Below the pieces are notes generated by a model. That model was not told the origin of the DNA, did no database searches, and was given only the letters and a program-made list of their open reading frames with translations. Source: Spirochaetia bacterium (GTDB lineage: Bacteria > Spirochaetota > Spirochaetia > B11-G9). Taken from it: a DNA stretch of 37,589 nt. Below, piece by piece: positions 6,932 through 37,589 of the stretch (the first letter of the stretch is position 1; every line of letters begins with the position of its first letter). The stretch spans positions 13,527 through 51,115 of the forward strand of contig JAOZPU010000005.1 in NCBI GenBank assembly GCA_029932585.1. Direction: 5' to 3'. Position numbers and translations under genes: made by a program.

Positions 6932-6942
6932 GATATTTATAG

Positions 6943-11515: not shown

Positions 11516-11523
11516 GTATATAA

Positions 11524-12360: not shown

Positions 12361-12367
12361 GGTAAAT

Positions 12368-15205: not shown

Positions 15206-15209
15206 AAAA

Positions 15210-16391
15210 TTATTCACCAACCTTCATGGATTTCATCCCCTGGTTTGGAGGAAGTGCCATATATGGTTTATTAAGGGTAAAAGAACCATCCTTAATTTCT
15301 GATTTTAATATCTCTGCAATAGTAATTGCTTTTTCATAAGAGGAAAGTGATGCAGTTTCTACTTCTTTTCCAAGAATATTTGCAGTTCCTGATTTTAATT
15401 CTTCATAATTTACAGTTGATAGGACTTTACCAGTTTTCATAGGGTAATCCATGGAATAATCAATTACCTGAGCTCGTATATCTCTATCTCTAATGGTAGT
15501 TTTAAGTAGAATTTCTTCATTTAATATGGGAATAGGTATACCTACTCCAAGAGCCAGAGAAACACCATAACCTTTAAAACTTACACCTCTGACATAATCT
15601 GCATCCATTTTTTTCATATCCCCGGTAAGAGCCAATGTCCCTGCTCCTTCTGCAGGAACATCATTTGCTGTTCGCTCAACTGCAGATGCATGCTGGGTTC
15701 CTTCTGAATAAACATGACCTTTGGCACCTGCAAGCCACACAGATGTTCCAACTCCTATGGTTTGATACAGTGGGTCATTTAAAAGGGGGGATAACTGCCC
15801 TGCTGATGAATAAGTAAGATTTCCCATATTAGGTTTAAGTTTGCCAAGATAGGTATATATAGTTTTATTTGATGTATTAATTGCTACATTATAGTTCTGA
15901 TAACAGTTTCTGGGATTTACCATAGTAGCCTGATTTAAGTCATCAATGGTGAACCGGGTTCTAATTTCTTTAAGGGGATACTCATCAGTACCGTAAGACA
16001 GAGCAAATAGCTGAAGTTCCTCACCTCTAATTAATTTTTCTATAACATGACCACCACCAAATTTGAATTCTCCAGGGTAATCTAAATTTGCAGGATCATT
16101 ATGACGAAGCTGAGTTGCTCCCATATAAAGATCTACTGCGGCAATTCCTGAATATGCAAGTACATCATCAATCCACGCTTCTGTAATTCTTATTTTAGGC
16201 TGGCTGTGTCCAAAGTTCATAAAACAACCAGAGGAACACATGGGGCCAAATGTTGCTGTTGTAACAACATCAACCTCTTTTGCAGCTTTCTCAATACCCT
16301 TTTCTTCTACATATTCAATTATTTCAGCAGCTGTAAGTACAACAGCTTTTTTTGAAACAATTTTTTCGTTTATTTCTTCATAAGTTTTCAT
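15210..16391 (-). CDS. Homocysteine biosynthesis protein DUF39/COG1900 (L-aspartate semialdehyde sulfurtransferase, MA1821/MJ0100-like, no CBS domains)
   Basis: KTYEEINEKI...AVVLTA.E, VDVVTTATFGPMCSSG, GGGHVIE, NPRNCYQNY, YSSAGQLSPLLNDP and GTQH motifs. Start at ATG 16391, alternatively 16400. Confidence 0.92.
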   Translation of the reverse strand: MKTYEEINEKIVSKKAVVLTAAEIIEYVEEKGIEKAAKEVDVVTTATFGPMCSSGCFMNFGHSQPKIRITEAWIDDVLAYSGIAAVDLYMGATQLRHNDPANLDYPGEFKFGGGHVIEKLIRGEELQLFALSYGTDEYPLKEIRTRFTIDDLNQATMVNPRNCYQNYNVAINTSNKTIYTYLGKLKPNMGNLTYSSAGQLSPLLNDPLYQTIGVGTSVWLAGAKGHVYSEGTQHASAVERTANDVPAEGAGTLALTGDMKKMDADYVRGVSFKGYGVSLALGVGIPIPILNEEILLKTTIRDRDIRAQVIDYSMDYPMKTGKVLSTVNYEELKSGTANILGKEVETASLSSYEKAITIAEILKSEIKDGSFTLNKPYMALPPNQGMKSMKVGE

Positions 16392-16397
16392 TGACAA

Positions 16398-16427
16398 CAT
16401 GCTATCAGATTATTAAAAAAATATCAA
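16398..16427 (-). promoter_or_regulatory. Putative sigma70 promoter giving a leaderless DUF39 mRNA
   Basis: Minus strand reads TTGATA-17 nt-TAGCAT with a TGn extended -10, then 7 nt to ATG 16391; no Shine-Dalgarno sequence. Confidence 0.45.
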
Positions 16428-24000: not shown

Positions 24001-25029
24001 TTAAAAATCAACAAGTGAAAAATTTGAGGATTTTAGCTGAAAGTATTCTTCCAGACCAGAACTTACAAATATCTTTTTATCTTTTGTTATAAAAATTCCT
24101 TCTAATTTGTCTGTAGACTCCAATATTTCCATACCCCTTATAAGGCCTGCTGAAAATACGACGGTTGAATATGCATCAGCCATTATTCCATTATGAGCTA
24201 CTATTGTTATGCTAAGCAAATTGTTCTCAACTGGATAGCCTGAATCCGGATCAAGAATGTGGTGGTATCTGTTACCATTTTTTTCGAAATAGCGTTCATA
24301 TATACCAGACGTAACTACTGCTGACTCGTCTGTTTCTATGGTCCCAATATATTGACCTCTGGAATCAATAGGATTCTGAATACCAATTTTCCAGAGTGTT
24401 TCCTTATTTTTTTTACCAAAGGTAAGTACATTACCACCAAGATTTATAATCCCCTTAGTAAACCCTTTATTAAGGAGGAACTCCTTTAAAATATCTGCAG
24501 CATAACCTTTTGCAATACCACCCAGGTCTATAGCCATATTTTTGTATTGCAGAAATACTGTTTTTTCATTGTTATTCAATAAAATATTTTGAGATCCAAT
24601 AAATGGGAGAACAGCTTCAATTGTATGAGTTTCAGGTACATTCTGCTTTTCAGTTCCTATTGCCCAAAGGTTAACAAGAGGTCCAATAGTAATATCAAAT
24701 TTACTTCCTGGTAAATTTGCATATTTTATTCCTTCTTCTATTACAAAAAATGTATCTTCGGATACTTTAACAGGATTAATACCTGCATTGGAATTTATCT
24801 GATCAAGTTCAGAATTTAATATTACCGGACTCATTTTATTTTCTATATTTTGAATAATTTTAAATGCTTCCTGAAAGGAAAAATCATTATTTTTCTCATA
24901 TAGAGTAATGGAACATACAGTGCCTAAAGCAAAGCTGGTTTCAGAATAAGGTTTTACATTATTACTATTACAGGACATAACAGTAAGAGAGATAACAAAC
25001 AGGATAAAAATTGAGTTAATCTTTTTCAT
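24001..25029 (-). CDS. apbE: FAD:protein FMN transferase ApbE/Ftp lipoprotein
   Basis: Lipobox VMSC; FALGT, FDITIGPL, DLGGIAKGY, NLGGN, TSGIYERY, HHILDP and ADAYST motifs. Confidence 0.95.
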   Translation of the reverse strand: MKKINSIFILFVISLTVMSCNSNNVKPYSETSFALGTVCSITLYEKNNDFSFQEAFKIIQNIENKMSPVILNSELDQINSNAGINPVKVSEDTFFVIEEGIKYANLPGSKFDITIGPLVNLWAIGTEKQNVPETHTIEAVLPFIGSQNILLNNNEKTVFLQYKNMAIDLGGIAKGYAADILKEFLLNKGFTKGIINLGGNVLTFGKKNKETLWKIGIQNPIDSRGQYIGTIETDESAVVTSGIYERYFEKNGNRYHHILDPDSGYPVENNLLSITIVAHNGIMADAYSTVVFSAGLIRGMEILESTDKLEGIFITKDKKIFVSSGLEEYFQLKSSNFSLVDF

Positions 25030-25170
25030 AGTTTTAAAACTCTAACATATTGGACTCAAGGTTTGCAATTACTGATTGGAGAGGGGGACGGGGGGGCCAA
25101 TAAAAATCTATATTTGCCAATAACTATATTCCTATGCTACTATGGTACAAATTATCAATGTGGAGTTCTT

Positions 25171-26166
25171 ATGTTAAATGCAATAACAGATATTCCCGGC
25201 ATTAAAGTCGGTCATGCTCAAAATATAGATGCAGGTACCGGCTGTACTGTAATTATTTGTGAAGATGGTGCTGTAACAGGTGTCGATGTAAGGGGTGGAG
25301 GCCCTGGTACTCGTGAGATAGCTGCACTTGATCCTGTAAACCTTGTTACCAAAGCTCATGCAGTATTTTTAGGTGGGGGAAGTGCTTACGGGCTGGATGG
25401 TGCTGCAGGAGTAATGCAGTATCTGGAGGAGAAGGAGATTGGTTTCAATGTTGGTGTAGGTGTTGTTCCCATAGTACCGGGGGCAGTGTTGTTTGATTTT
25501 TTTGTAGGTGATTATAAAATACGTCCGGATAAGGAAATGGGATACAAAGCATGTCTGGATGCTAAAGATAATAACAAGGCCGAAGGAAATATTGGAGCCG
25601 GAACCGGTGCTGCTGTTGGAAAGATAAAAGGCCCTGATTATTTTATGAAGAGCGGTATTGGTACAGCAAGCAGGCAAGTAGGAGATTTAATTGTTGGTGC
25701 CATTGTTGCTGTAAACTCTTTTGGGGATGTTATATGTCCCTTTACAGGACGAATAATTGCAGGGACTCTGGATGAGGAAAAGAAAAATCTTGCAGATACT
25801 ATGTCAATAATGTCTTCAACAGATGCCAGTGAGAGTACTGCTTTTTCAGGGAATACTACAATTGGGTGTATTGCTGTAAATGCCAATTTAACTAAAGCAG
25901 AAGCTACAAAAGTATCAATGATGGCTCATGACGGGTTTGCAAGAGCTATAAATCCAATACATACCATGTATGATGGAGATACTATTTTTTGTATGGCAAC
26001 AGGAAAAGTTAAGTCTGATCCTACAATAATAGGCGCTTTAGCCGCGGAAGTTATGGCAGATGCTATAGTAAATGCTGTTAAAAGTGCAGAAACAGCTTAT
26101 GGTATACCCTGTTATAATGATATTGCCAGAGAAGAGAGAAAAGAGAGGGACGGAGGTTCATTATGA
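25171..26166 (+). CDS. Peptidase S58/P1 (DmpA/OAT superfamily), Thr-nucleophile type like ThnT/NylC
   Basis: ITDIPGIKVGH, DVRGGGPGTRE, GGSAYGL, GNIGAGTGA, autocleavage GN|TT and HTMYDGD motifs. Start moved to ATG 25171 after GGAG. Confidence 0.92.
   Translation: MLNAITDIPGIKVGHAQNIDAGTGCTVIICEDGAVTGVDVRGGGPGTREIAALDPVNLVTKAHAVFLGGGSAYGLDGAAGVMQYLEEKEIGFNVGVGVVPIVPGAVLFDFFVGDYKIRPDKEMGYKACLDAKDNNKAEGNIGAGTGAAVGKIKGPDYFMKSGIGTASRQVGDLIVGAIVAVNSFGDVICPFTGRIIAGTLDEEKKNLADTMSIMSSTDASESTAFSGNTTIGCIAVNANLTKAEATKVSMMAHDGFARAINPIHTMYDGDTIFCMATGKVKSDPTIIGALAAEVMADAIVNAVKSAETAYGIPCYNDIAREERKERDGGSL
26147..26162 (-). repeat. Dispersed GC-rich motif copy (GGGACGGAGGTTCATT on the + strand)
   Basis: Reverse complement of 14464..14479. 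It encodes the S58 C-terminal tail and contains the GGAGG RBS of panE. Confidence 0.6.
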
Positions 26167-27104
26167 AAATATCAATAATCGGAGCAGGAGCTATGGGCTC
26201 ACTGTACGGTGGAAAATTATCCCTGTCTGGTAATGATGTTGTTCTCTACGATATTAATAAAGCTCATGTTGATACTATCAATTCAAAAGGTCTTATTATT
26301 GAGGAATCTGATACTGGAGAAAAAATAACTGCTCATCCAACAGCATCTTCTAATCCAGAGGATGTTTCAGGATCAGATTTGTTGATAATTTTTGTTAAAT
26401 CAACAGCAACTAAATTAGTTTCTGAGCAATTTGTAAAATATGCAAAACCTGAAACTATTGCTCTGACCCTCCAGAATGGTTTAGGTAATGAGGATATTAT
26501 AAGGGATTCCTTTGGAGCCGAAAGAACTGCAGCCGGAGTTACTTCCCAGGGTGCCACATTTCTTGGACCGGGGAAAATACGTCATGCTGGAAATGGCCCT
26601 ACTCACATTTGTATGTCAAATAAAGATAACACTAAACTTAAAGAAGTTATACGGGTTTTTTCAGAAAGCGGCTTTGAAATTCATATTGAAGAAAATATAG
26701 CAGATCTTGTTTGGAGCAAACTTGTAATTAATGTGGGAATTAACGCAGTAACAGCTCTTTCAGGTCTTGAAAATGGCAAACTTCTTGATTATTCCGATAT
26801 GAAATCTCTAATGGCAGATCTTGTTGGAGAAGCGGTAACGGTCGCTGAAAAAAAGGGAATAAAGCTTAGCTACGATGATCCTTTGCAGATTGTATACGAT
26901 GTTTCTGAAAAAACTGCTCTTAATAGGTCTTCCATGTTACAGGATTTTGATCGGGGAAGTCTTACGGAGATAGATTTTATTAATTATGCTATAGTAAGGG
27001 AAGGGGCAAAACTTGGAATTGCCACTCCGTTTAATAGTGCAATTTCAAAACTTGTTAAATCTATGGAACTTGTAAACAGGAGTAGGAAGGTTACAGATGC
27101 TTAG
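26163..27104 (+). CDS. panE: 2-dehydropantoate 2-reductase (PanE/ApbA family)
   Basis: GAGAMG Rossmann motif, FVKS, LQNGLGN, WSKLVINVGIN, SSMLQD and TEIDFIN. Confidence 0.92.
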   Translation: MKISIIGAGAMGSLYGGKLSLSGNDVVLYDINKAHVDTINSKGLIIEESDTGEKITAHPTASSNPEDVSGSDLLIIFVKSTATKLVSEQFVKYAKPETIALTLQNGLGNEDIIRDSFGAERTAAGVTSQGATFLGPGKIRHAGNGPTHICMSNKDNTKLKEVIRVFSESGFEIHIEENIADLVWSKLVINVGINAVTALSGLENGKLLDYSDMKSLMADLVGEAVTVAEKKGIKLSYDDPLQIVYDVSEKTALNRSSMLQDFDRGSLTEIDFINYAIVREGAKLGIATPFNSAISKLVKSMELVNRSRKVTDA

Positions 27105-28320
27105 TGATTTCGAAAAAAATCTTTTTAACTATATTGATGAAAATGAGCTTGTTGAACTTACTCGAAATTTGATCAAAATTGATTCTGTTATTCGTCCTGA
27201 AACAGGAAATACAGAAGCAAAGGTTGTTGAATTTATTGCAAACTGGATTAGAACAGAATTGGAACTGGAACCTGAAATTAATGAAGTTTTACCTGGAAGA
27301 GAAAATATTATTCTAAAAATTGATTCAGGAAGACCTGGTAAAACACTTATGTTTGAAGGTCATACTGATGTTGTTTCTGAAGGTGTAATCTCTCTTTGGA
27401 AGCATGATCCCTTTGGCGCAGTAATTGAAGATGGAAAGATCTATGGCCGTGGATCATGTGATATGAAAGCTGGAGTTGCAGTTAACCTGCTAACTGTAAA
27501 AGCTATGCTTAAATCTAAAGTTGAATTTAGCGGTAGAATAATTCTTGGTATTCTTTGTGATGAAGAAGATCTTATGCTTGGTGTTCAGGATTTTATTAAA
27601 CAGGGTCATGCTGATAATGTTGATGCCTGCCTTGTTTCAGAACCTGAGGAAAATCAGTTATGTATAAGTATGAAAGGAGCTCTTCGAATTAAACTTACAG
27701 TTCATGGGAAAATGGCCCATGGTGCTATGCCTCTTGCAGGAATAAATCCTAATACCAGACTTGCCTGGATAATTCTTGCATTTCAGGAATATGAGGAAAG
27801 CCTTAAAGAAGAATTTGGTGAGGATGAATATCTTGGCTGGCCTTCAGTAACTTTTACAGTTATTCAATCACCTCCACCACCAGAGCCTCCCCAGTTAAAT
27901 GTAATGCCTGGTGAATCTGTTGCATATGTAGATATTAGAACTATTCCCGGGCAGGACCATAAAGAGATAAAAGAAGCTTTAGGAAATATTCTAAAAGAAC
28001 TTGGTAATCAGGATCCTGATTTCAATGTTACAATGGACTATCTGGCAGACAAACCAGTGGTGAGTATGAGTAAGGATGAGCCCATTGTTCTTACTGCAGC
28101 AGCTGTTTATAAAGATCTGACAGGAAAAGAACCTGTTTATAATGGTGTTCCCGGAGCAACAGATGGTACATATCTTAGAGATCTAAAAGGTATTCCATGC
28201 CTTGTAAATGGACCAGGCCCCAGACATATTCCTCATCAGACAGATGAATATGTAGAAATTGATGAATTAGTAGAATCACTAAAACTGTATGTTTTAACAA
28301 CTTATAGGTTTTTAAATTAG
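27097..28320 (+). CDS. M20 family metallo-amidohydrolase (ArgE/DapE-like)
   Basis: GHTDVV, GRGSCDMKAG, DEE, EPE, GATD and HQTDE motifs. Confidence 0.93.
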   Translation: MLSDFEKNLFNYIDENELVELTRNLIKIDSVIRPETGNTEAKVVEFIANWIRTELELEPEINEVLPGRENIILKIDSGRPGKTLMFEGHTDVVSEGVISLWKHDPFGAVIEDGKIYGRGSCDMKAGVAVNLLTVKAMLKSKVEFSGRIILGILCDEEDLMLGVQDFIKQGHADNVDACLVSEPEENQLCISMKGALRIKLTVHGKMAHGAMPLAGINPNTRLAWIILAFQEYEESLKEEFGEDEYLGWPSVTFTVIQSPPPPEPPQLNVMPGESVAYVDIRTIPGQDHKEIKEALGNILKELGNQDPDFNVTMDYLADKPVVSMSKDEPIVLTAAAVYKDLTGKEPVYNGVPGATDGTYLRDLKGIPCLVNGPGPRHIPHQTDEYVEIDELVESLKLYVLTTYRFLN

Positions 28321-28385
28321 GCTTTTATAATGTTGCACAGCACAAAAAGCTATAAATGAGAGAAATTTGAAATAAAAGGATTTTT

Positions 28386-29078
28386 ATGTCGGGTGGAAAG
28401 AAATATATATGGTTTGATCTTGGGTATACTCTACTTAAATTGAAGAGAGAAGAGAGTTTTAGGAATATTCTTTCAGATCTTGGTTTCGAAGTATCAATTA
28501 GTCAAATTGAAAAAGCTTTTCATCTTACAGATAAACTTTTTATGAGAAAGTATCCAGGTGTTCTTGGCAAGAGTAGGGCGTTCTATATGCCTATGTATCT
28601 TGGGAATATGATATATGCTCTTGGTTTACGGACAGATATCTGTCCTCTTTTTTTGGAATGGAAGAAAAAACTTGAAAATCCATTTAAGGTCTGGGCTCCT
28701 TTTGATAATGTAAAAAATGAACTTAAAAATCTTGTCTCAGAAGGTTATCGTCTTGGAGTAATCTCCAATTGGGATAAAACTGCAGTTCCATTACTGGATC
28801 AGTTTGAACTTACCTCTTTTTTTGACAATATAATAATATCGTCAGAAGTAGGATGTGAAAAACCTGATATAAAGATATTCCAAATTGCTCTGGATAAGGC
28901 TTCAGTTCCTGTAGAGGATTGTCTTTATGTTGGAGACAATTATTATGATGATGGAATTGGAAGTAAGAATATTGGAATGGATTTTGTAATTATAAATGCA
29001 TATAGCGATCTGGGTGTTGAGGAACTGGATGATTGTAATATAATTACTGATATAACTCAGCTTAGGGAGTATTTATGA
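28386..29078 (+). CDS. HAD-superfamily hydrolase (subfamily IA)
   Basis: FDLGYTL, GVISNWD, EKPD and YVGDNYYDD motifs. Confidence 0.92.
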   Translation: MSGGKKYIWFDLGYTLLKLKREESFRNILSDLGFEVSISQIEKAFHLTDKLFMRKYPGVLGKSRAFYMPMYLGNMIYALGLRTDICPLFLEWKKKLENPFKVWAPFDNVKNELKNLVSEGYRLGVISNWDKTAVPLLDQFELTSFFDNIIISSEVGCEKPDIKIFQIALDKASVPVEDCLYVGDNYYDDGIGSKNIGMDFVIINAYSDLGVEELDDCNIITDITQLREYL

Positions 29079-29806
29079 AACTAACTGTAGTTGGTCACTG
29101 GGGAGCATATCCCGGCCCGGGAGGAGCCAGTTCCGGTTATTTATTAGAAGAGAACAATGAAAGTTTGTTGTTGGACTGTGGGTCGGGTGTGCTTGCAAAA
29201 CTGTATGAATATACTGATATCAGCCAGTTGAATAATGTTGTATTATCTCATTATCATTCAGATCATATAGCAGATATTGGATGTCTCCAGTATGCATCAA
29301 AGGTACAGTTAAGTCTTGGTGAGAGAATAGATCCCATATCTATTTATGGACACACACTTTCAGATTTTTTTAATAAATTAAGTTATGAAAATGCTTCAGT
29401 TGGAAAGCCTATACAAGAGGGTACCTCTGTTAGTATTGGCCCCATAACTCTTCATTTTAAGCATACAACCCATCCTGCTCCTGCTTTAGCAATGCGGATT
29501 GAATCTGAAAATGGTTCTATGGGTTATACAGCAGATACCGGGTGGAATGATTCTCTTATAGATTTTTTTAGTGGAGTAGATTTACTTCTTTGTGAATCAA
29601 GTCTATATAATAAATATAAGGGGAGAGTTGAAGGACATCTTACTGCTGGAGAAGCTGGTCTTCTTGCTAAAGAGGCCGGTGTCGGGCAGTTAGTTCTTAC
29701 TCATATGCCACATTTTGGTGATCATAATGAACTTAAAATAGAGGCTGGAAATGTCTATAGTGGAAAAATAGAACTTGCAGAGAGTGGTAAAGTCTGGATA
29801 ATCTGA
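29075..29806 (+). CDS. MBL-fold metallohydrolase (RNase Z/YhfI-like phosphodiesterase group)
   Basis: LLDCGSG, SHYHSDH, YTADT, CES, GHLT and LTH motifs. Confidence 0.92.
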   Translation: MKLTVVGHWGAYPGPGGASSGYLLEENNESLLLDCGSGVLAKLYEYTDISQLNNVVLSHYHSDHIADIGCLQYASKVQLSLGERIDPISIYGHTLSDFFNKLSYENASVGKPIQEGTSVSIGPITLHFKHTTHPAPALAMRIESENGSMGYTADTGWNDSLIDFFSGVDLLLCESSLYNKYKGRVEGHLTAGEAGLLAKEAGVGQLVLTHMPHFGDHNELKIEAGNVYSGKIELAESGKVWII

Positions 29807-29873
29807 AATTGTGAGAATTATATAGAAATGTATTTGTCTAATATATGATTTTTATGGCATACTTAGGGGTAAT

Positions 29874-30800
29874 ATGGAATTATTGTTATTTATTGTAAGA
29901 CGTTTTCTCAGATTGGTATTAACTATTCTTATTATCTCTACAATTATTTTTTTCGTGATAAGGGTTATTCCTGGTGATCCTGCTCTTGTAGTTGCAGGCA
30001 TTGATGCCTCGGATGATGATATTCAGGCTATTCGTGTTCGTCTCGGGACAGATGTTCCTGTAGGTGTTCAGTATGTACGGTGGTTATCGGATATTGTTCG
30101 TTTTGATTTTGGTGAATCCATGATATCCGGTGCTTCAGTTAATAAGCTTATTTTAGAGCGTTTTCCTTTAACACTTACTCTTGCTGTTTTAGGAATTATG
30201 CTGGGTATTATTGTTGCAATTCCTCTTGGGGTTCTTTCGGCTGTACATAGGTGGTCCTTTTGGGATTACTTTGGGATGGTATATTCACAGATGGGTATGG
30301 CCATACCAAGTTTCTGGCTGGGACTGATTCTATTACTTGTTTTTGCTGTAAAAATACCTCTGTTTCCACTGTTTGGGTCGGATAGTCTTAAACATTTAAT
30401 TCTACCTGCAATTGCTCTTGGTTTTGCCCGTGCTGCGGTTATTCTTAGACTAACCAGAGCTGCTATGGTGGAGGAACTAAGTAGAGAATATATTATAACC
30501 GCAAGAGCAAAAGGTCTGACAGACAGAATGATTCGATACAAGCATGCACTGCGAAATGCAATGATAGCTGTTGTAACTATAACAGGGATTCAGTTTGGCT
30601 ATATGCTTGGTGGAGCAATTATTGTTGAGCAGGTTTTTTCTCTGCCTGGTCTTGGTAGATTATTTTTATATGCAATTTATCAACGTGATTTCCCTTTAAT
30701 TCAGGGTGGTGTTGTTTTTATAGCTATTGTTTTTTCTCTGGTTAACTTTGCTGTAGATATTCTTTACAGTGTGCTTAATCCTAAGATAAGGATTTCATAG
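29874..30800 (+). CDS. Opp/Dpp/Nik-family ABC permease (DppB-like)
   Basis: IPGDPA, IPSFWLG, EAA-like EYIITARAKGL, KHALRNA and IVEQVFSLPGLGRL motifs. Confidence 0.95.
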   Translation: MELLLFIVRRFLRLVLTILIISTIIFFVIRVIPGDPALVVAGIDASDDDIQAIRVRLGTDVPVGVQYVRWLSDIVRFDFGESMISGASVNKLILERFPLTLTLAVLGIMLGIIVAIPLGVLSAVHRWSFWDYFGMVYSQMGMAIPSFWLGLILLLVFAVKIPLFPLFGSDSLKHLILPAIALGFARAAVILRLTRAAMVEELSREYIITARAKGLTDRMIRYKHALRNAMIAVVTITGIQFGYMLGGAIIVEQVFSLPGLGRLFLYAIYQRDFPLIQGGVVFIAIVFSLVNFAVDILYSVLNPKIRIS

Positions 30801-31786
30801 TGCTTGAAATAAAAAATCTTAACATAAGTTTCGTCCAGGGAGAAAAAGAGGCTAATGCACTTAGAGGTATTAGTTTAAGTCTTAAACGAAATGAAGTACA
30901 TTCTCTTGTTGGTGAATCCGGATCAGGAAAAACAGTAACATCTACCTGTATAATGGGACTTCTCCCTACACCTCCTGGTCGTATAAATTCCGGTCAGATT
31001 ATTCTTAATAATCAGGATCTTCTTCTTCTGGAGGAAAAGGATCAAAGGCAAATTAGAGGTAAAGAGATTGCTATGGTTTTTCAGGAACCTGCACGATATC
31101 TAAATCCCACTTTAAAGGTTGGAGATCAAATTACGGAGATGTTAATTCTTCATCTTGGTATGAGTAATATTGAGGCTGTAGATCGGGCACTAGAGATACT
31201 TGAACTTGTTGGCCTTGAAGGTGGCAAACGAATTCTTGACAGTTATCCTCATGAACTTTCAGGTGGAATGAAACAGCGAATTATGATAGCTATAGCTATA
31301 AGTTGTAATCCTGCTTTTTTAATTGCAGATGAACCAACAACAGCCCTGGATGTAACTCTTCAGCTTCAGATACTTAATCTTATGCTAAGTTTGAAAAACA
31401 CTCTGGATATGGGAATTTTATTTATTTCACATGATTTGCGAGTTGTTCATGATATTTCTGACTGGGTTTCGGTAATATATGCAGGAAGAATTGTTGAATC
31501 AACGTCTCGTAAAGAGCTATTTACGAATCCGAAACATCCATATACACGACTTCTTCTTGAATCTATTCCTGATGCAGATAAAAGAGGTCAAAGGCTTCAG
31601 ACTATACCAGGAAAAGTTCCTGATGCAGAGAATATACCTGGGGGTTGTGCTTTTCATACAAGATGTCCTATTGCAGAGGATATTTGCAAAACAGACTTAC
31701 CTGAGACAAAAGAAGTAGGTTCGGATAATTCTGGTACCTCTCATACAGCAGCATGTCACTTTATTGGAAAACAATGGAAAAATTAA
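30800..31786 (+). CDS. Opp/Dpp-family ABC ATPase (DppD-like) with C-terminal 4-Cys motif
   Basis: GESGSGKT, LSGGMKQR, ADEPTTALD, HPYT and GCAFHTRCPIAEDIC...AACH; GTG start overlaps the upstream TAG. Confidence 0.95.
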   Translation: MLEIKNLNISFVQGEKEANALRGISLSLKRNEVHSLVGESGSGKTVTSTCIMGLLPTPPGRINSGQIILNNQDLLLLEEKDQRQIRGKEIAMVFQEPARYLNPTLKVGDQITEMLILHLGMSNIEAVDRALEILELVGLEGGKRILDSYPHELSGGMKQRIMIAIAISCNPAFLIADEPTTALDVTLQLQILNLMLSLKNTLDMGILFISHDLRVVHDISDWVSVIYAGRIVESTSRKELFTNPKHPYTRLLLESIPDADKRGQRLQTIPGKVPDAENIPGGCAFHTRCPIAEDICKTDLPETKEVGSDNSGTSHTAACHFIGKQWKN

Positions 31787-32703
31787 TTGAATTAAAAAAT
31801 ATTATCAAGGTTTTCAAAAGCCACAAACTCATATCTGTAAAAAAGGATAACTACGTAGCTGTCAATAATGTAAGTCTTGATATACAGAAAAATACTATTT
31901 TCGGTCTGGTTGGTGAGTCTGGTTGTGGAAAAACAACTCTTGCCAGATCTGTAATGATGCTGGATCCTCCCAGTTCCGGAGAAATCATTTACAATGGGAA
32001 AAATATTTCAGGCATTTCAAGAAAAGAACTCCATCCATACAGGTCAAGAATGCAGATCGTCTTTCAGGATCCAAATAGCGCCCTTAATCCTAAAATGTCC
32101 ATATATAACTGTATGAAAGAAGGTTTGGTAAACAGAAAGTTTCCAAAAGATAAGATGGATAGTAAAATTAAGAGTTTGCTTGATCTTGTTGGAATTTCTC
32201 CAAATCATGTAAATCGATTTCCACACGAATTTTCAGGAGGGCAAAAGCAGAGAATTGTTATTGCCCGGGCACTTTCCATGGAACCGGAATTTCTTGTTTT
32301 GGATGAACCTGTTTCTAATCTTGATGTATCAATTCAGGCTCAAATAATAAATCTTTTACTGGATTTAAAAGATGAGTTTTCATTGACGTATCTTTTTATC
32401 TCCCATGACCTTAATCTTGTTTCATATTTAAGTGATGAGGTTGCTGTGATGTATAAAGGAGAGATTGTGGAGACTGCTAAAACAGAAAAAATTATGAAGA
32501 AACCCATGCATCCATATACTCTCAAATTGTTTTCATCTGCTCCAGGTAAAGATAGTAATAATCTTTTTGAAGCAGATGATAGCTACAGAGAAGGGTTACC
32601 TGAAAAATTTACATATTTCCCTCCAAATCCTGATTCTACTTTGCAGCTAATAGATATTGGAGAAGATCACAGAGTTGGTTGTTATACATTAAACGGATCG
32701 TAG
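31774..32703 (+). CDS. Opp/Dpp-family ABC ATPase (DppF-like)
   Basis: GESGCGKT, FSGGQKQR, LDEPVSNLD and HPYT motifs. Start probably ATG 31774, alternatively 31753. Confidence 0.95.
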   Translation: MEKLIELKNIIKVFKSHKLISVKKDNYVAVNNVSLDIQKNTIFGLVGESGCGKTTLARSVMMLDPPSSGEIIYNGKNISGISRKELHPYRSRMQIVFQDPNSALNPKMSIYNCMKEGLVNRKFPKDKMDSKIKSLLDLVGISPNHVNRFPHEFSGGQKQRIVIARALSMEPEFLVLDEPVSNLDVSIQAQIINLLLDLKDEFSLTYLFISHDLNLVSYLSDEVAVMYKGEIVETAKTEKIMKKPMHPYTLKLFSSAPGKDSNNLFEADDSYREGLPEKFTYFPPNPDSTLQLIDIGEDHRVGCYTLNGS

Positions 32704-32721
32704 ATTCGTAAAAAATATATA

Positions 32722-32767
32722 TCGATAAAATGGGCGATACGAAGTGTCAAGGTTCTATTTTAGTCGA
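32722..32767 (+). promoter_or_regulatory. Conserved stem-loop leader upstream of ABC substrate-binding protein gene (copy 2)
   Basis: TC-GATAAAATGGG-CGATAC-GAA-GTGTCA-AGGT-TCTATTTTAGTC-GA; 34/42 identical to 2..43; followed by AAGGAG and ATG 32781. Confidence 0.7.
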
Positions 32768-32780
32768 AAAGGAGTAACAT

Positions 32781-34286
32781 ATGAGAAAGGCAGCAAAATT
32801 TGGATTATTTCTTGTCATGATTATGCTTATGACAGGGATGCTGTTTGCAGCTGGGAGTAAAGAGGTTAAACCCCTCAATTTTGCTTTGGCTGGAAATCCT
32901 GATACATTAGATCCTCACAAAACTTCGGGGACTCTTACGTTTCAAACAGTTAAGAGTGTTTACGATACACTGGCAGAACCAGATGAAAATGGTGTTATTG
33001 TACCGGCTCTTGCTGAAAGTTGGGATGTCTCAGCTGATTCACTTACATGGACCTTTCATTTAAGAAAGGGTGTAAAATTTCATAATGGTGATGCTTTTAC
33101 ATCTGCAGATGTTAAGGCTTCTTTTGAAAGAGTTCTGGCAGAAGAAACAGCTTCTCCTCATAGAAAAGAGATGGGTATTATTGCATCTATGGATACACCT
33201 GATGATTTAACAATTGTATTTAATCTTTCTGGCCCACATGCTCCTTTTCTTGCAACCCTTGCTTCCGGTTGGAGTGCAATTCTTCCTAAGAGTCTGATTG
33301 ATACAGGTCATGATTTTGACTCTCTTCCTGTAGGAACCGGACCTTTTAAACTGGAAGAATGGGTTCGTGACAGTAAGGTTGTATTTTCAAAGAATGATGA
33401 TTACTGGATGAAAGGACTACCAAAACTGGATAAGGTTATTCTTCACATTATACCAGAGACATCTGTTGTTGTTCAGGGACTTATTTCCGGTCAGATAGAT
33501 GTAGTTTATATTGTTGACAGTGATGATATTCCAATGCTTGAAGCAAGTCCTGATGTTACACTGAAGGAGAATCTTACATCCCTTATAATGGTTATGCCAA
33601 TGAACACCAGCAAACCTCCTCTTGATGATATTAGAGTACGTCAGGCTATTAACTATGCTATTGATAAGCAGAAAATACTTGATATTGCATATGGTGGTGG
33701 TGAAACTATTGGAACATTTATGGATCGTGGGAATGCATACTATAAAGATTTTACAGATCTTTATCCATATAATCCCGAAAAGGCTAAAGCACTTCTAAAA
33801 GAAGCCGGTGTTGGTAATGATGTTGAATTAAAACTGTATCTTCCCCAAAATTATACCCTTCATGTTAAAGCTGGAGAGATGTATCAGGAGATGCTTACCA
33901 AGGTTGGCCTAAATGTAAAAATTCAGTTAATTGACTGGTCTACATGGATTAGTGATGTTTATAGAGCTAGTAAGTTTGACTTAACAGTTATTGGACATAC
34001 TGGAAAACTTGATCCTGATGGTACTCTTGGTGGTTATGGCGAAGGTAAATATGTTCAATGGTTTAATGATGATGCTGCAGGACTTATAAAGAAAGCAGCT
34101 GCAACAATTGGATATGAAGAAAGAAAGGTAATGTATGACCAGGTTCTTGAAATAATGGCAAAAGAAGTTCCTTTTGTTTACCTTGGTTCTTCCTATAGAA
34201 CAACTGCTTATCGATCTAATGTAACTGGATTTAGGATTACTCCGAACCTGGATACATTTGACTTCAGGTGGACAGAGTTTAAATAG
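32781..34286 (+). CDS. Family 5 ABC substrate-binding protein (DppA/OppA-like)
   Basis: Signal ending LFAAGSKE; PDTLDPH, LAESWDVS, LRKGVKFHNG, PVGTGPFKL, VRQAINYAID and YNPEKAKALL motifs. Confidence 0.95.
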   Translation: MRKAAKFGLFLVMIMLMTGMLFAAGSKEVKPLNFALAGNPDTLDPHKTSGTLTFQTVKSVYDTLAEPDENGVIVPALAESWDVSADSLTWTFHLRKGVKFHNGDAFTSADVKASFERVLAEETASPHRKEMGIIASMDTPDDLTIVFNLSGPHAPFLATLASGWSAILPKSLIDTGHDFDSLPVGTGPFKLEEWVRDSKVVFSKNDDYWMKGLPKLDKVILHIIPETSVVVQGLISGQIDVVYIVDSDDIPMLEASPDVTLKENLTSLIMVMPMNTSKPPLDDIRVRQAINYAIDKQKILDIAYGGGETIGTFMDRGNAYYKDFTDLYPYNPEKAKALLKEAGVGNDVELKLYLPQNYTLHVKAGEMYQEMLTKVGLNVKIQLIDWSTWISDVYRASKFDLTVIGHTGKLDPDGTLGGYGEGKYVQWFNDDAAGLIKKAAATIGYEERKVMYDQVLEIMAKEVPFVYLGSSYRTTAYRSNVTGFRITPNLDTFDFRWTEFK

Positions 34287-35105
34287 ATGATAATAAAAGG
34301 AAAGAACTGGGTTTTTAATATTTCAGTTCTGTTTATAATTCTTTTAGGGGCGGCTGCAATTGCAGCCCCCCTGGTTTCTCCATATAGTCCTACTGATCAG
34401 AATATTGATCGTAGGTTTTCAGCACCGGATTCTATTAATATTCTTGGTACAGATAATTTTGGAAGAGATATTCTTAGTCGAATTATTTATGGTTCCAGAT
34501 CTGCACTCCTTGTAGGAATAGTTTCTGCTTCCATAGCTGTTACTATTGGAATGACTGTAGGGCTTATTGCCGGCCTTGGAGGTAATTGGGTAGATAACCT
34601 GCTTATGCTCCTTATGGATTCGCTTTTATCGTTTCCTACAATTTTACTTGCAATTACGGTTGTTTCCTTTTTTGGCTACGGCCTCGTACAGGTTATGTCT
34701 GCTATTGGAATAATATACAGTCCTGTTTTTGCAAGGCTTGTAAGGGCAGAAACACTGGCTATAAAAACAGAGAGTTATATTGAAGCATCCCGTGCATTGG
34801 GTACACCTGTTATTAAACGGGTTTTTATTCACATTATTCCTAATCTTCTGGGAAAAGTTATAGTTCAGCTTACAATTACTTTTGCTCTTGCAGTTGTTAT
34901 TGAAGCATCTCTCTCTTATTTGGGTTTAGGTACTCAACCACCTGCACCAAGCTGGGGGTTAATGCTTAAAGATGCAAAGAATTATCTAATACAGGCACCA
35001 TGGATGGCAATATATCCTGGTCTTGCACTGGCTTTTACTGTATTTGCTTTTAATTTGATTGGTGATACTTTTGCCGAAAAACTTAATCCCAGAGTTCTAA
35101 AGTAG
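34287..35105 (+). CDS. Opp/Dpp-family ABC permease (DppC-like)
   Basis: LGTDNFGRDILSR, YIEASRALG, HIIPN and LSYLGLG.QPP.PSWG motifs. Confidence 0.95.
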   Translation: MIIKGKNWVFNISVLFIILLGAAAIAAPLVSPYSPTDQNIDRRFSAPDSINILGTDNFGRDILSRIIYGSRSALLVGIVSASIAVTIGMTVGLIAGLGGNWVDNLLMLLMDSLLSFPTILLAITVVSFFGYGLVQVMSAIGIIYSPVFARLVRAETLAIKTESYIEASRALGTPVIKRVFIHIIPNLLGKVIVQLTITFALAVVIEASLSYLGLGTQPPAPSWGLMLKDAKNYLIQAPWMAIYPGLALAFTVFAFNLIGDTFAEKLNPRVLK

Positions 35106-35119
35106 AGCGGGAACTGGCA

Positions 35120-35938
35120 ATGAAAATAGGTATACTCTCTGATATCCATGTTGATATAAATTTTACAGATAAGGATATTATTACTCCATCAATCTGCAAT
35201 AATATTAAAGATAATGCTCTGGATATGATAATTATTGCCGGAGATGTTGCCAGCAATTATAAACTTATTCTAACAACTCTTGAAGAGATTGAAAAACAGA
35301 CAAATATTCCCTGTCTCTATGTCCCGGGTAATCACGATATCTGGGTAGAAAATTATCCTGAAAAGACATCCTGGGAAATTTATGAATTATTAAAATCTTA
35401 TCCCCACAATCTTGCAAATGGACCTTATGTTATAAATAATGACTGGGTAGTTATTGGAGATCTTGGTTGGTATGATTTTAGTTTTGGAGATTCAAATAAA
35501 TACAGTTTTGATGATTTTAGTAATATGAAATATGAAGAGAGAGTTTGGCAGGACAGTATTAAAGCTGTATGGAATAAGTCCACTCAGGATATGCATAGAT
35601 ATTTTATGGATAAACTGGAAAAACAGTTAAAAATGTACCAGAATAAAAATATTATAGTTGTCACTCATGTTCTTCCTATAATTGATTTTACAGTTCAACC
35701 TCCGTCCCCAATGTGGGAATATATGAATGCCTTTTTAGGAAGCTCAGAATATGGAGAGTTAATTTTAAAGTATCCAAATGTAAAATATGCTGTTTCGGGG
35801 CATGTCCATTACAGAAAACGTAAAAAAATAAATGAAACTGAGTTTATCTGTAATTGCCTTGGATACAAAAATGAGTGGTATAAGAATGATGATGCGGAAG
35901 TTGAAGTTGATAAGGCTTTGATGACTATTGGTATTTAA
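35120..35938 (+). CDS. Calcineurin-like metallophosphoesterase
   Basis: SDIH, AGD, GNHD, GWYDFSF, VTH and SGHVH motifs. Confidence 0.92.
   Translation: MKIGILSDIHVDINFTDKDIITPSICNNIKDNALDMIIIAGDVASNYKLILTTLEEIEKQTNIPCLYVPGNHDIWVENYPEKTSWEIYELLKSYPHNLANGPYVINNDWVVIGDLGWYDFSFGDSNKYSFDDFSNMKYEERVWQDSIKAVWNKSTQDMHRYFMDKLEKQLKMYQNKNIIVVTHVLPIIDFTVQPPSPMWEYMNAFLGSSEYGELILKYPNVKYAVSGHVHYRKRKKINETEFICNCLGYKNEWYKNDDAEVEVDKALMTIGI
35697..35710 (+). repeat. Dispersed GC-rich motif copy (AACCTCCGTCCCCA)
   Basis: Identical to 14468..14481; read in frame as QPPSP in the metallophosphoesterase. Confidence 0.5.
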
Positions 35939-36009
35939 TTTTGTTGATATCCTTCTTTAATATATAAATAATAGACTGGCGCAAAAAGTTTTTATAACAT
36001 TCTTACTAC

Positions 36010-36037
36010 TTGACTAATATAGCCCGTAGGCTATAAT
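36010..36037 (+). promoter_or_regulatory. sigma70 promoter with overlapping palindromic operator for the toxin-antitoxin operon
   Basis: TTGACT-16 nt-TATAAT; inverted repeat TATAGCC-CGTA-GGCTATA (36018..36035); ATG only 6 nt after the -10 box. Confidence 0.75.
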
Positions 36038-36043
36038 TATACT

Positions 36044-36397
36044 ATGTGGCAAATTGAATATACAGATGAATTTGAGCTGTGGTGGAGAAGTCTATCTGAG
36101 CATGAACAAATTGATCTGGTAGCAAGTATTGATCTTTTGGAACAAATTGGACCCAATTTGGCCCGACCTTATTCAGATACATTAAGAGGTTCAAAACATA
36201 CAAATATGAAAGAGCTAAGAACTCAGAGTAAAGGAAAACCACTACGAACTTTTTATGCATTTGATTCTCGTCGATCTGCTATTTTATTAATTGGTGGAGA
36301 TAAAACCGGAGATGATCGTTTCTATGAAAGAATGATACCTCTGGCAGATCGTTTATATGATGAACATCTTAGAGATATTAAAAGAGAGGAGTTCTAA
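36044..36397 (+). CDS. Type II toxin, RelE/ParE superfamily (HigB/Gp49-like)
   Basis: W.IEYTDEF..W, GP.L.RPYSDTL.GS...NMKELR and R.FYAFD..R.AILLIGGDK motifs; lies upstream of an HTH gene. Confidence 0.92.
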   Translation: MWQIEYTDEFELWWRSLSEHEQIDLVASIDLLEQIGPNLARPYSDTLRGSKHTNMKELRTQSKGKPLRTFYAFDSRRSAILLIGGDKTGDDRFYERMIPLADRLYDEHLRDIKREEF

Positions 36398-36399
36398 TA

Positions 36400-36702
36400 A
36401 TGGCTCAAAAATTTGAAAAACTTAAGAAAGAGATGAAACTGGAAAATATTCAAAAAGCAAAGATTAAAACAAATGAAATGATGGCAGAGATGTTGTTGAC
36501 TGAAATTCGTAAGGAAGCTGGTTTTACTCAAAAAAATCTGGCAGAAACAATGGGAGTTAAACAACCCAGTTTATCAAAACTTGAATCTCAGAATGATATG
36601 CAGATAAGTACACTTCAACGCCTTGTTAAAGCTCTTGGAGGGCAATTAGAAATGATTGCCCATATGCCTACTGGTGACATTAGATTAAGACAGTTTAAAT
36701 AA
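36400..36702 (+). CDS. XRE-family HTH antitoxin (HigA-like)
   Basis: IRKEAGFTQKNLAETMGVKQPSLSKLE HTH and ISTL...V.ALGG.LE; GAGGAG RBS; 2 nt after the toxin stop. Confidence 0.92.
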   Translation: MAQKFEKLKKEMKLENIQKAKIKTNEMMAEMLLTEIRKEAGFTQKNLAETMGVKQPSLSKLESQNDMQISTLQRLVKALGGQLEMIAHMPTGDIRLRQFK

Positions 36703-36912
36703 AAAGCTCTATTGACTAGTTCCTTTTTACAGTATATTCTGCTTTTATCCCTACTTAGTTTATCAATAATTTAGTTATTTTGCAATTTTTAGCAGTAAAA
36801 GTTGTAAATACCTATAAATTTATTAATAAATTAGAAAGGATATGATTGTGTCAAATCTTATAACATAGAATACAGGTTCTAAAAATCTGTAAGAATAAAA
36901 GGAGAAATTAAT

Positions 36913-37589
36913 ATGAGTGACGTTATTATAAAAAATTCAAGAAACACGGAAAATGCACCCAAAAGTTCTTTTTCTACACAAACTGTAGCTTTTTCTCATT
37001 ACAATAATATTTCAGCTCAATTACCTGTAGACCCTAAAACCGGTAAAATTGTAGCTGGTGGAGCTAAAGAGCAGGCAAAGCAGTGCTTAGCAAATATTAA
37101 AGCAATTGTACACAGTATTGACCATGTTATGGATGATGCTGTTAAAATTACTGTATTTCTTAAGAATATCTCAGATATTGATGCTGTAGATGAAGTTTAT
37201 ACATCATTCTTTCACAGTGATCTTCCTACACGGACAACAGTTGCAGTTGCAGCTTTACCTATGGATGCTTTAGTACAAATTGAAGCAGTTATTTCCAACG
37301 GTGAAGGTACACATCCACAAGCGAGCTTAGATCTAATAAAAGTTTCAAGAAACACAGAAAATGCTCCAAAAGGTGTATATTCTCAAACTGCAGCTTTTTC
37401 TCATTACAATAATATTTCATCTCAACTACCTGTTGATCCAAAATCTGGTAAAATTGTAGCTGGTGGAGTAAAAGAGCAGGCAACCCAGTGTTTAAACAAC
37501 ATTAAAGCAATTTTAGAAAGTATTAACCACGTTATGGGCGATATAGTTAAAACAACTATATATCTTAAAAACATCTCTGATATTGAAGC
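36913..37589 (+). CDS. Multi-domain (tandem) Rid/YjgF/UK114-family protein, truncated by the window end
   Basis: Not in the ORF track. AAAGGAG RBS and ATG 36913, open to the window end: MSDVIIKNSRNTENAPK...QLPVDPKTG...EQAKQCLANIKAI...VKITVFLKNISD...LPTRT...VQIEA, then a second copy SRNTENAPK...QLPVDPKSG...EQATQCLNNIKAI. Confidence 0.92.
   Translation, partial: MSDVIIKNSRNTENAPKSSFSTQTVAFSHYNNISAQLPVDPKTGKIVAGGAKEQAKQCLANIKAIVHSIDHVMDDAVKITVFLKNISDIDAVDEVYTSFFHSDLPTRTTVAVAALPMDALVQIEAVISNGEGTHPQASLDLIKVSRNTENAPKGVYSQTAAFSHYNNISSQLPVDPKSGKIVAGGVKEQATQCLNNIKAILESINHVMGDIVKTTIYLKNISDIE

Follow-up and report, generated by a model that had tools for sequence, protein, structure and literature searches.

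The gene cluster described here lies in a 37,589-nucleotide stretch of DNA (G000:C112:13527-51115; "the window" throughout means this whole stretch) from a Spirochaetia bacterium whose genome, G000, comprises 3.19 Mb in 293 contigs and is 92.1% complete. Between positions 25171 and 35938 it carries 11 co-directional open reading frames (ORFs), all on the plus strand, with a largest intergenic gap of 77 bp (32703/32781) and six junctions that overlap or abut; a first-pass annotation of this DNA had listed just such an array with gaps of 77 bp or less, and all of its ORFs were confirmed in place, as were its family names by Pfam and NCBIfam profile searches. The first three genes encode an S58 amidase, a PanE-type reductase and an M20 deacylase (the triad, or module 1), and the remaining eight a HAD hydrolase, an MBL-fold hydrolase, a five-gene ATP-binding cassette (ABC) importer and a metallophosphoesterase (MPE; together module 2). 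We propose below that module 1 may act in the anaerobic breakdown of the vitamin B5 core of coenzyme A (CoA). The public sequencing runs in which window DNA occurs come, by their labels, from metagenomes of hydrothermal vents and marine sediments, and no RNA dataset is listed among them.

The cluster opens with a self-cleaving Thr amidase of the S58/P1 type (25171..26166), which matches PF03576 over profile positions 1-301 of 307 (1.9e-47; 162.7 bits against a cut-off of 23.9) and no NCBIfam model; its ORF begins at a TTG at 25063, and all aligned homologues start at the ATG at 25171. The G-N-T-T autocleavage site proposed in the first-pass annotation is indeed encoded at 25849..25860 (G227-N228-T229-T230, cut between N228 and T229): N228, T229 and T230 are invariant across 11 aligned homologues, and the window's NTT aligns with the NTT of ThnT and of the nylon hydrolase 9cxr. 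The closest sequences in the PDB are nylon-6,6 hydrolase 9cxr (1.6e-65), ThnT (1.2e-49, residues 3-292) and NylC (4e-34), with DmpA and BapA missing from the 17 PDB matches obtained at E 0.001. An identity as a DmpA/BapA-like beta-peptidase was therefore rejected for want of detectable similarity, and the Asn-Thr site places the protein in the ThnT/NylC branch of peptidase S58/P1, cleavage itself being predicted. From its gene context, set out below, we infer hydrolysis of pantetheine, or of a similar pantothenoyl amide, to pantothenate and cysteamine as its candidate activity.

The second gene (26163..27104) encodes a PanE/ApbA-family 2-dehydropantoate reductase for which we propose the pantoate dehydrogenase direction. 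It scores 266.4 bits with TIGR00745 (cut-off 141.35), holds both ApbA domains (PF02558 and PF08546), finds its best PDB matches in the ketopantoate reductases 3hwr (2e-45) and 5hws (3e-44), and is the sole copy found in G000; no NCBIfam model of equivalog level was reached, the best being NF005092 at 197.8 bits against a cut-off of 500. It is followed by an M20 deacylase of the ArgE/DapE family (27097..28320; TIGR01910, 257.8 bits, cut-off 217.6), the proposed pantothenate amidohydrolase (pantothenase), in which both the catalytic and the dimerisation domain are present (PF01546 and PF07687). Residues H89, D122, E156, E157, E182 and H380, which we take to be the metal ligands, are invariant across 10 orthologues, and all DapE and ArgE equivalogs stay under cut-off (e.g. 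NF006399, 204 vs. 381 bits; TIGR01892, 154 vs. 298). Members of the M20 family act on amino acids whose carboxylate is free, removing their N-acyl groups, a chemistry that fits pantothenate, or N-pantoyl-beta-alanine.

Module 2 begins with a HAD-IA hydrolase (28386..29078; PF13419, HAD_2) whose atypical motif I reads D-L-G-Y-T in eight of eight orthologues and thus has no second aspartate. In HAD phosphatases that residue of the DxDx(T/V) motif acts as the general acid/base, so that the role of 4'-phosphate remover assigned to the protein in the first-pass annotation is doubtful. Next comes an MBL-fold, phosphodiesterase-like metallohydrolase (29075..29806; PF12706) with an intact HxHxDH motif, a PDB match to 6kns (7e-65, labelled putative metal-dependent hydrolase) and a best NCBIfam match to a cyclic-nucleotide phosphodiesterase that remains under cut-off (145 vs. 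400 bits). The importer comprises a DppB/NikB-type permease (29874..30800; PF00528, PF19300), two ATPases of the DppD/OppD and DppF/OppF types (30800..31786 and 31753..32703; both PF00005, PF08352), a family-5 solute-binding protein (32781..34286; PF00496, 9e-103) whose hydrophobic N-terminus, judged by eye, resembles a signal peptide, and a DppC/NikC-type permease (34287..35105; PF00528, PF12911). Closing the cluster is the MPE (35120..35938; PF00149, 61.4 bits; TIGR03729, 176.5 bits, cut-off 148.25), its DxH, GD, GNHD and GHVH motifs intact and present in eight of eight aligned sequences; the translated N-termini of the cluster's enzymes, again by eye, show no evident signal peptide, and the MPE is taken as cytoplasmic. 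For the binding protein, the GsiB (202 vs. 594 bits), DppA (188 vs. 1005) and NikA (184 vs. 393) equivalogs all fall under cut-off, while its best PDB match is the opine binder AgaA (6hlx, 1e-69), ahead of DppA. At the positions of DppA D408 and R355, which presumably grip the two ends of the dipeptide ligand, it reads K and Q, and these are kept in four orthologues. Nickel or opine uptake was considered and rejected, since no equivalog model reached cut-off and the window encodes no opine dehydrogenase or oxidase.

Divergently oriented genes for ApbE, ResB and CcsB flank the cluster upstream, and downstream it borders on a Gp49/HigB-like toxin gene (PF05973) with a helix-turn-helix (HTH) antitoxin gene (36044-36702, directly 3' of the cluster). 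This toxin-antitoxin pair is not at the equivalent place in the same-genus genome G001, where RidA directly follows the MPE; in the window, an ORF with two tandem RidA/L-PSP domains occupies 36913-37587 and runs off the end, and the homologous stretch of G001 gives three staggered RidA matches over ~1.2 kb, indicative of a multi-RidA protein or a gene array. Scans of 24900-37000 returned 38 promoter-like sites against 44.8 expected from shuffles, and hence no enrichment, and 9 terminators against 7.0, a result uninformative as to transcription units. With 11/12 matches, the highest-ranking promoter-like site (36010-36037) falls 3' of the cluster and 5' of the toxin gene. Among the 36 window ORFs scanned with Pfam and NCBIfam none belongs to the PanB, PanC or PanD families, which bears out the first-pass annotation on this point, and none to the Nudix family. 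Elsewhere the window holds a chemotaxis operon (3337-14032) with two methyl-accepting chemotaxis proteins, CheA with a receiver domain, CheW, CheB and CheR, terminating in a response-regulator-coupled adenylate/guanylate cyclase, and, on the minus strand (14786-16400), a homocysteine-biosynthesis sulfur-incorporation gene (PF01837, 483 bits) adjoining a NIL-domain ferredoxin gene.

The S58 protein finds a match in 18 of 41 related genomes, strong in 17 and confined in one (G002) to a 20-residue fragment at a contig end, and the window proteins were compared by tblastn with 13 loci from 11 of the S58-positive genomes. All 11 genes recur in order in G001, and 10 of them, without the MBL gene, in G007 and G008 of the same family; G013, from another family, has S58, PanE, a broken M20, MBL, the importer and the MPE without the HAD gene. 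The triad, present in 8 of the 11 relatives' genomes examined, occurs by itself at the loci of G011, G018 and G031, and also in G010, whose contig ends in the first permease, and S58 is found without PanE or M20 in the stretch examined of G025, G032 and G027 and at the paralogue loci L024 and L025. The gene order of the cluster is not a matter of chance. Its stable core is represented by the triad, and the HAD and MBL genes come and go among relatives. In G011 the HAD, MBL, permease, two ATPase, binding-protein, permease and MPE genes follow one another as in the window, on a different contig than the triad, from which we conclude that in the window cluster two modules have been fused. Neighbours were also scanned at twelve additional loci that belong to other families of the class: PanE and M20 are adjacent in 11, S58 and PanB are each present in 7, a LIV-type binding protein is present in 8, VorAB adjoin PanB in 3, FolD and Fhs adjoin PanB in 2, and coaX follows M20 in 1. 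The set of S58, PanE, M20, HAD, MBL and ABC genes envisaged in the first-pass annotation thus survives as a conserved triad and not as an indivisible 11-gene unit: in the class, the triad is more often accompanied by the LIV-type importer or by PanF.

The two S58 paralogues just mentioned (L024 in G013, 1908-4292; L025 in G032, 12894-14039) bear long hydrophobic N-terminal extensions, which by sequence we take as probable export signals, and one of them adjoins a 65% M20 orthologue; they may carry out the same chemistry outside the cell.

In 11 of the 18 S58-matched relatives (G002, G007-G011, G013, G018, G025, G031 and G032), Pfam neighbour scans and a genome-wide PanB search place panB within 1.5 kb of S58, mostly in divergent orientation. 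G018 displays the order panB-PanF-S58-PanE-M20, its PanF scoring 560 bits with TIGR02119 (cut-off 328). The S58-linked panB lies directly beside VorB in G013 (same strand) and G031 (convergent; NF005507, 547 and 486 bits respectively, cut-off 399), near FolD and Fhs in the same two genomes, and is followed by FolD, with Fhs nearby, in G011; in G031 and G011, genes for a phosphotransacylase (PTAC/PTB) and an acetate/butyrate-family kinase lie within or next to the triad. In G039, where S58 was not found, the gene next to panB matches POR_N. 

Within the window's own genus panB no longer adjoins S58. In G000 (L035, 15459-19780) and G006 (L130) it is flanked on one side by a gene for a multihaem cytochrome c and on the other by one for a dCache histidine kinase, which in G000 is followed by a LuxR-type regulator; in G001 (L129) the histidine kinase is again 3' of panB and the upstream gene has no Pfam match. 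The window slot equivalent to that of panB in the relatives is filled by the ApbE gene and the cytochrome c maturation genes ResB and CcsB. At locus L015 of G025 (7840-12747), genes for a long acyl-CoA dehydrogenase, electron transfer flavoprotein (ETF) alpha and beta and a nitronate monooxygenase-like protein converge on the S58/panB pair; these proteins might handle isobutyryl-CoA or beta-alanine-derived intermediates.

The content of the carrier genomes agrees with this picture. Among the 41 relatives, 27 have PanB, 5 have PanC, its gene next to panB in all five, and 4 have the archaeal phosphopantothenate synthetase (PPS); none of these nine PanC- or PPS-positive genomes holds an S58 or M20 orthologue. 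M20 orthologues occur in 15, all of them S58-positive and none with PPS. Of the 18 PanB-positive relatives without PanC and PPS, 15 carry a full-length S58; as for the other three, G002 has the S58 fragment beside panB, and none was found in G003 or G039. In a set of 201 genomes sampled evenly from the class, with 90% or more set as the requested completeness, M20 orthologues are present in 21, PanC in 28 and CoaBC, by its DFP domain, in 106; not one of the 21 M20-positive genomes has PanC and only 2 have CoaBC, leaving 19 without it, and Fisher tests on these overlaps overstate the association because relatives are not independent. In a PanB tree, 15 S58-linked PanBs form one clade (100/100) apart from the PanC- and PPS-linked PanBs of the class, and its nearest neighbours are S58-linked PanBs of Chloroflexota, Acidobacteriota and Symbiobacterium.

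Searches of G000, G007 and G011 recovered CoaD and CoaE and did not find PanK of types I, II or III, CoaBC or PanD; nor were PanC and PPS found in G000, in which, consequently, pantothenate appears to be neither made nor used by a known route. The argument that no cell would burn a vitamin of its own therefore falls away, as pantothenate would be unusable as such. G013 gave only a partial match to a Fumble-type (type II) PanK, and G018 has CoaBC. Other contigs of G000 carry genes for FolD and Fhs, for PTB-like and Ack-like proteins, and for a VorAB that is 68-71% identical to the pair linked to panB. The sole coaX match of G011 (G011:C45:26934-27448) is broken by TAA and TGA stops and looks like a pseudogene, which fits a loss of the early CoA pathway in the group. 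A general rule that PanB without PanC always denotes catabolism was rejected, given that four such genomes of the class carry PPS. In the two of these whose panB surroundings were scanned, G037 (L039, 5077-10874) and G040 (L038, 5644-9391), a GHMP-family kinase, PPS (PF02006), panB, a pyridoxal-phosphate-dependent decarboxylase and CoaBC form an operon, an archaeal-type CoA route in bacteria without PanC; our guess is that the kinase is a pantoate kinase.

Beyond the class, we collected 80 S58 loci (one genome per species; S58 alignment scan, 45-63% identity) from Bacillota, Chloroflexota, Acidobacteriota, Proteobacteria and others, with neighbours defined by tblastn, clustering and Pfam. An ECF S component lies directly downstream of S58 in 19, a type III pantothenate kinase (coaX) nearby in 7, PanB and/or PanE in 7, an SSF symporter, under the PanF equivalog level, in 9, and a Dpp-type importer in 3, with HAD, MBL or MPE homologues near none. 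No NCBIfam model matches the ECF S component; the Atlas cluster nearest to it is annotated "pantothenic acid transporter PanT family" (score 0.96), a lead and not a proof. Altogether 27 of the 80 loci feature at least one of PanB, PanE, an M20 orthologue, the ECF S component and CoaX, and such pantothenate-linked contexts are scattered across the whole S58 tree. S58 homologues thus adjoin panB, the PanT-like component, coaX or panBC, and in Clostridia S58, the PanT-like component and coaX are seen together. Judging by these gene contexts, at least some members of the NylC-like nylonase subfamily may act on pantothenoyl amides in nature.

Such arrangements could also mark salvage alone, with S58 freeing pantothenate for the cell's own CoA synthesis and nothing being burnt: S58 stands beside the PanT-like component or coaX and inside panB(E)C operons, and CoaX-type kinases are reported (PMC11487621) to select pantothenate and to leave pantetheine unused. 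In G000, G007 and G011, however, freed pantothenate could not enter CoA synthesis, as no PanK type and no CoaBC was found there, and salvage leaves M20, PanE, PanB, VorAB and FolD/Fhs unexplained; for the window cluster we regard it as very unlikely.

The M20 protein was used in turn to centre 80 metagenome loci (42-100% identity, many on short contigs), in which PanE lies nearby in 25, S58 in 18, PanB in 14, the PanT-like ECF component in 10, a LIV-type binding protein in 7, and a PanF-like gene and VorB in 4 each. At least one of PanE, PanB, S58, PanF-like, PanT-like ECF, VorB and CoaX accompanies 44 of the 80, and of the 26 loci flanked on each side by 3 kb or more, 18 have a pantothenate-linked neighbour. 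The occurrence of PanF-M20, panB-M20-PanF and ECF-S-S58-M20 arrangements ties the M20 enzyme to pantothenate itself.

The same linkages bear on the possibility that the cluster is a general-purpose operon importing and hydrolysing unusual peptides, such as the beta- or D-amino-acid peptides of DmpA and BapA, or N-acyl amino acids, with the PanE-like protein as a broad 2-hydroxyacid dehydrogenase. Dpp/Opp importers, like peptidases of the S58 and M20 families, are typical of peptide utilisation; some PanE-family PDB matches of the window protein, such as 3wfi, are D-mandelate dehydrogenases; and 53 of the 80 S58 homologues elsewhere show no pantothenate context. Yet the S58 protein matches ThnT at 1e-49 and neither DmpA nor BapA at E 0.001, its linkage and that of its partners to panB, PanF, PanT-like, coaX and VorAB genes recurs in several phyla, the binding protein has replaced both dipeptide-gripping residues of DppA, and the window holds no aminotransferase to feed a 2-oxoacid reductase. 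A peptide operon accordingly strikes us as distinctly unlikely, albeit less so than salvage.

Taken together, these observations lead us to favour, with moderate confidence, a reading in which module 1 constitutes the upper part of an anaerobic catabolic route for the vitamin B5 core of CoA; each substrate and the direction of flux we infer from gene families, linkage and genome content that are themselves observed. In this route, S58 would split pantetheine or a similar pantothenoyl amide into pantothenate and cysteamine, M20 would split pantothenate into pantoate and beta-alanine (pantothenase, EC 3.5.1.22), and PanE would oxidise pantoate to ketopantoate, which PanB, running in reverse, would convert to 2-oxoisovalerate and 5,10-methylene-tetrahydrofolate (THF). 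VorAB would then turn 2-oxoisovalerate into isobutyryl-CoA, from which the phosphotransacylase and kinase would yield isobutyrate and ATP, and FolD and Fhs would take the C1 unit to formate with a further ATP; genes for PanB, VorAB, the phosphotransacylase- and kinase-like proteins, FolD and Fhs are present elsewhere in G000 and adjoin the triad in relatives. Pantetheine is proposed for S58 because the gene is present where pantothenate is a useful product (coaX, PanT-like, panBC) and because ThnT is its nearest characterised relative, and pantothenate for M20 because the latter joins only where PanE and PanB are present. The catabolic direction is suggested by the lack of a pantoate consumer, by the four importer types (Dpp, LIV, PanF and ECF) that adjoin the triad, and by the downstream position of VorAB and the phosphotransacylase/kinase pair, with FolD/Fhs able to carry the C1 unit to formate with ATP. 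The first-pass annotation had already placed S58, M20 and PanE on pantetheine, pantothenate and pantoate, a proposal now strengthened by gene context in several phyla and by carriers without PanC and PPS; PanB reversal, VorAB and FolD/Fhs, which lie outside the window, were not part of it.

The same inventory could be read in the opposite sense, as a new biosynthetic route in which PanB and PanE make pantoate and S58 and M20, acting as transferases or in reverse, build pantetheine or 4'-phosphopantetheine and so replace PanC, PanK and CoaBC. The genomes do keep PanB, PanE, CoaD and CoaE without the known steps between them, the PanB clade is tightly conserved, and the adjacent VorAB, FolD and Fhs could supply precursors. 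However, neither the cluster nor its surroundings include an ATP-dependent ligase, a kinase or a decarboxylase, the triad is adjoined by importers of four types, and the formation of an amide bond without activation is unfavourable, so that we consider such a route highly improbable.

Several points weigh against the catabolic reading. PanE oxidation of pantoate is thermodynamically uphill, and little pantothenate is available for growth. The presence of VorAB, FolD and Fhs next to panB would equally fit a reductive synthesis of ketopantoate from isobutyrate and formate, and panB linkage alone does not show catabolism, since in two other phyla (L072 and L118) PanC stands between panB, accompanied in L072 by PanE, and S58, which thus rides a biosynthetic panB(E)C operon. 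The panB gene of G000 itself is on another contig, unlinked to the cluster (G000:C85; TIGR00222, 313 bits, cut-off 208), and in a genome that is 92% complete in 293 contigs "not found" does not equal absent. Outside the class, the 53 S58 loci without pantothenate context lack PanB, PanE, M20, ECF-S and CoaX within 6-10 kb, and 36 of the 80 M20 loci, among them 8 of the 26 flanked on each side by 3 kb or more, have no pantothenate-linked neighbour. With PanF beside S58 in G018, the amidase would be left without an obvious role if pantothenate alone were imported. Finally, module 2 is separable from the triad in G011, its binding protein has orthologues in genomes without S58 or M20 orthologues (G034 and G038, more weakly G014 and G020), and its HAD enzyme has the atypical motif I described above; within the overall scheme, the CoA-level phosphoester steps are conjecture and the HAD step doubtful.

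What module 2 would contribute can be approached from the company its importer keeps. Binding-protein orthologues occur in 20 of the 41 relatives, and the gene 3' of, or adjoining, the last importer permease is commonly a phosphoesterase: in G011 and G023 it is the MPE, which wherever it occurs comes after the DppC-type permease; in G034 it is a phosphatase of the ComB type; and there are phospholipase C (PLC)-like zinc phosphoesterases in G038 and G031, the latter with SurE nearby. In G032 the adjoining gene has no family match. This accompaniment by varied phosphoesterases, together with the K and Q at the dipeptide-gripping positions of DppA, indicates that the cargo is probably a phosphoester and not an ordinary peptide, which module 2 would import and strip of its phosphoester groups in the cytoplasm; and since the module is fused to module 1 both here and in another family, a phosphorylated pantetheine derivative would be the most likely such compound. 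That the cargo is specifically CoA, dephospho-CoA or 4'-phosphopantetheine we put forward tentatively, on the grounds of the fusion to the triad, of a 35% homologue of the cluster MPE that follows coaX after 4 bp in G031 (L223, 4350-6239), and of the enrichment of the importer in CoaBC-less genomes: in the 201-genome sample, 27 of 34 importer-positive genomes have no CoaBC against 68 of 167 importer-negative ones, a comparison uncorrected for kinship. The importer was nonetheless rejected as a universal answer to CoaBC loss, as 68 of the 95 CoaBC-less genomes have no importer either.

Alternatively, the triad alone might concern vitamin B5 and the HAD-MBL-ABC-MPE genes handle an unrelated phosphorylated compound, such as a phosphopeptide, a nucleotide conjugate or a phospho-sugar opine, being merely adjacent to it. 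This would account for the solitary eight-gene module of G011, for the binding-protein orthologues of G034 and G038 (weaker in G014 and G020) in the absence of S58 and M20, for the predominance of LIV-type importers beside the triad in the class (8/12 loci), and for the opine binder AgaA as the best solved relative of the binding protein. It sits poorly with the fusion of module and triad in two arrangements and two families, with full-length MPE homologues in 12 of the 41 relatives, all 12 of them S58-positive, with the coaX-MPE link of G031, and with the joint occurrence of M20 and binding protein (10 of 21 M20-positive vs. 24 of 180 M20-negative genomes, again uncorrected for kinship), and we hold it to be rather unlikely.

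We attach a similarly low likelihood to an extended version of the catabolic reading, a "CoA-fragment economy" for cells left with CoaD and CoaE alone, in which the importer and the MPE/MBL enzymes would form a previously undescribed bacterial uptake system for CoA fragments and deliver 4'-phosphopantetheine to CoaD and CoaE, with the surplus burnt via S58, M20 and reversed PanE and PanB. The cargo could then be CoA, dephospho-CoA, 4'-phosphopantetheine or phosphopantetheinyl peptides shed from acyl carrier protein. This version draws on the correlation of CoaBC absence with both the importer (27/34 vs. 68/167) and M20 (19/21), neither figure being corrected for kinship.

The locus and its relatives provide testable candidate genes for pantothenase, an orphan activity since the 1960s, and for a microbial pantetheine hydrolase. 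If true, the catabolic reading would describe an oxygen-free route that runs the "biosynthetic" enzymes PanE and PanB backwards, with ATP possible from both products. The locus bears on the CoA supply of spirochaetes without PanK and CoaBC (95 of the 201 sampled genomes are without CoaBC), on the natural role of NylC-like "nylonases", and on vitamin B5 turnover in sediments and guts. A literature search outside subscription journals and supplements returned no paper that describes catabolic genes for pantothenate or pantoate, or a bacterial pantetheinase of primary metabolism. A term search of a 2025 review of gut-bacterial CoA metabolism (PMC12570885) gave no occurrence of "pantothenate degradation" or "CoA degradation", and the pantetheinase passages it brought up concern gut and serum enzymes, none of them bacterial.

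Among known systems, the closest in logic is the thienamycin set of Streptomyces cattleya, in which, as Freeman et al. reportedly described in 2008, ThnT together with ThnR (Nudix) and ThnH (HAD) trims CoA. Common to both are the idea of an amidase acting after phosphoesterases and, in the match of S58 to ThnT, an aligned Asn-Thr site. ThnT, however, belongs to secondary metabolism and supplies cysteamine, whereas the window context is one of primary metabolism, with no Nudix gene, an atypical HAD motif I and a proposed route that continues via M20, PanE and PanB. ThnT is given as the only known microbial pantetheine hydrolase in a 2026 review (PMC13602198).

A second precedent is the aerobic route of Pseudomonas, known from enzymology of the 1960s-70s and consisting of pantothenase (EC 3.5.1.22), pantoate 4-dehydrogenase, aldopantoate dehydrogenase and dimethylmalate dehydrogenase. 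The first step, from pantothenate to pantoate and beta-alanine, and the end product 2-oxoisovalerate would be the same; the route proposed here would instead oxidise C2, by PanE, and not C4, and would hand the hydroxymethyl group to THF by PanB reversal in place of losing CO2, a course that would suit anaerobes and yield ATP via Fhs and the acyl-phosphate. The protein behind pantothenase was still unidentified as of 2023, according to PMC10393543.

De novo pantothenate synthesis and its archaeal counterpart with pantoate kinase and PPS employ the same PanB (TIGR00222) and PanE (TIGR00745) families, both matched above cut-off here. Searches of the carrier genomes nevertheless returned no PanC or PPS, and their PanB falls in a separate clade and adjoins amidases, importers and VorAB in place of PanC, PanD and CoaBC. 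The window importer, in turn, shares its five-gene architecture and SBP_bac_5 fold with family-5 systems for agropinic acid (AgaA, 6hlx) and agrocinopine (AccA) and with NikA, GsiB and YejABEF, and differs from them in reaching no equivalog at cut-off, in the exchange of D408 and R355 for K and Q, and in being regularly followed by a cytoplasmic phosphoesterase. Lastly, the NylC-type nylon hydrolases (9cxr, 5xyt and 9z0a) are the closest solved structures to S58 by sequence, 9cxr sharing its NTTIG site, but nylon is not a natural substrate; a nylonase screening paper (PMC10858056) gives no native function or substrate for NylC-type enzymes, for which the gene contexts assembled here point to pantothenoyl amides as candidates.

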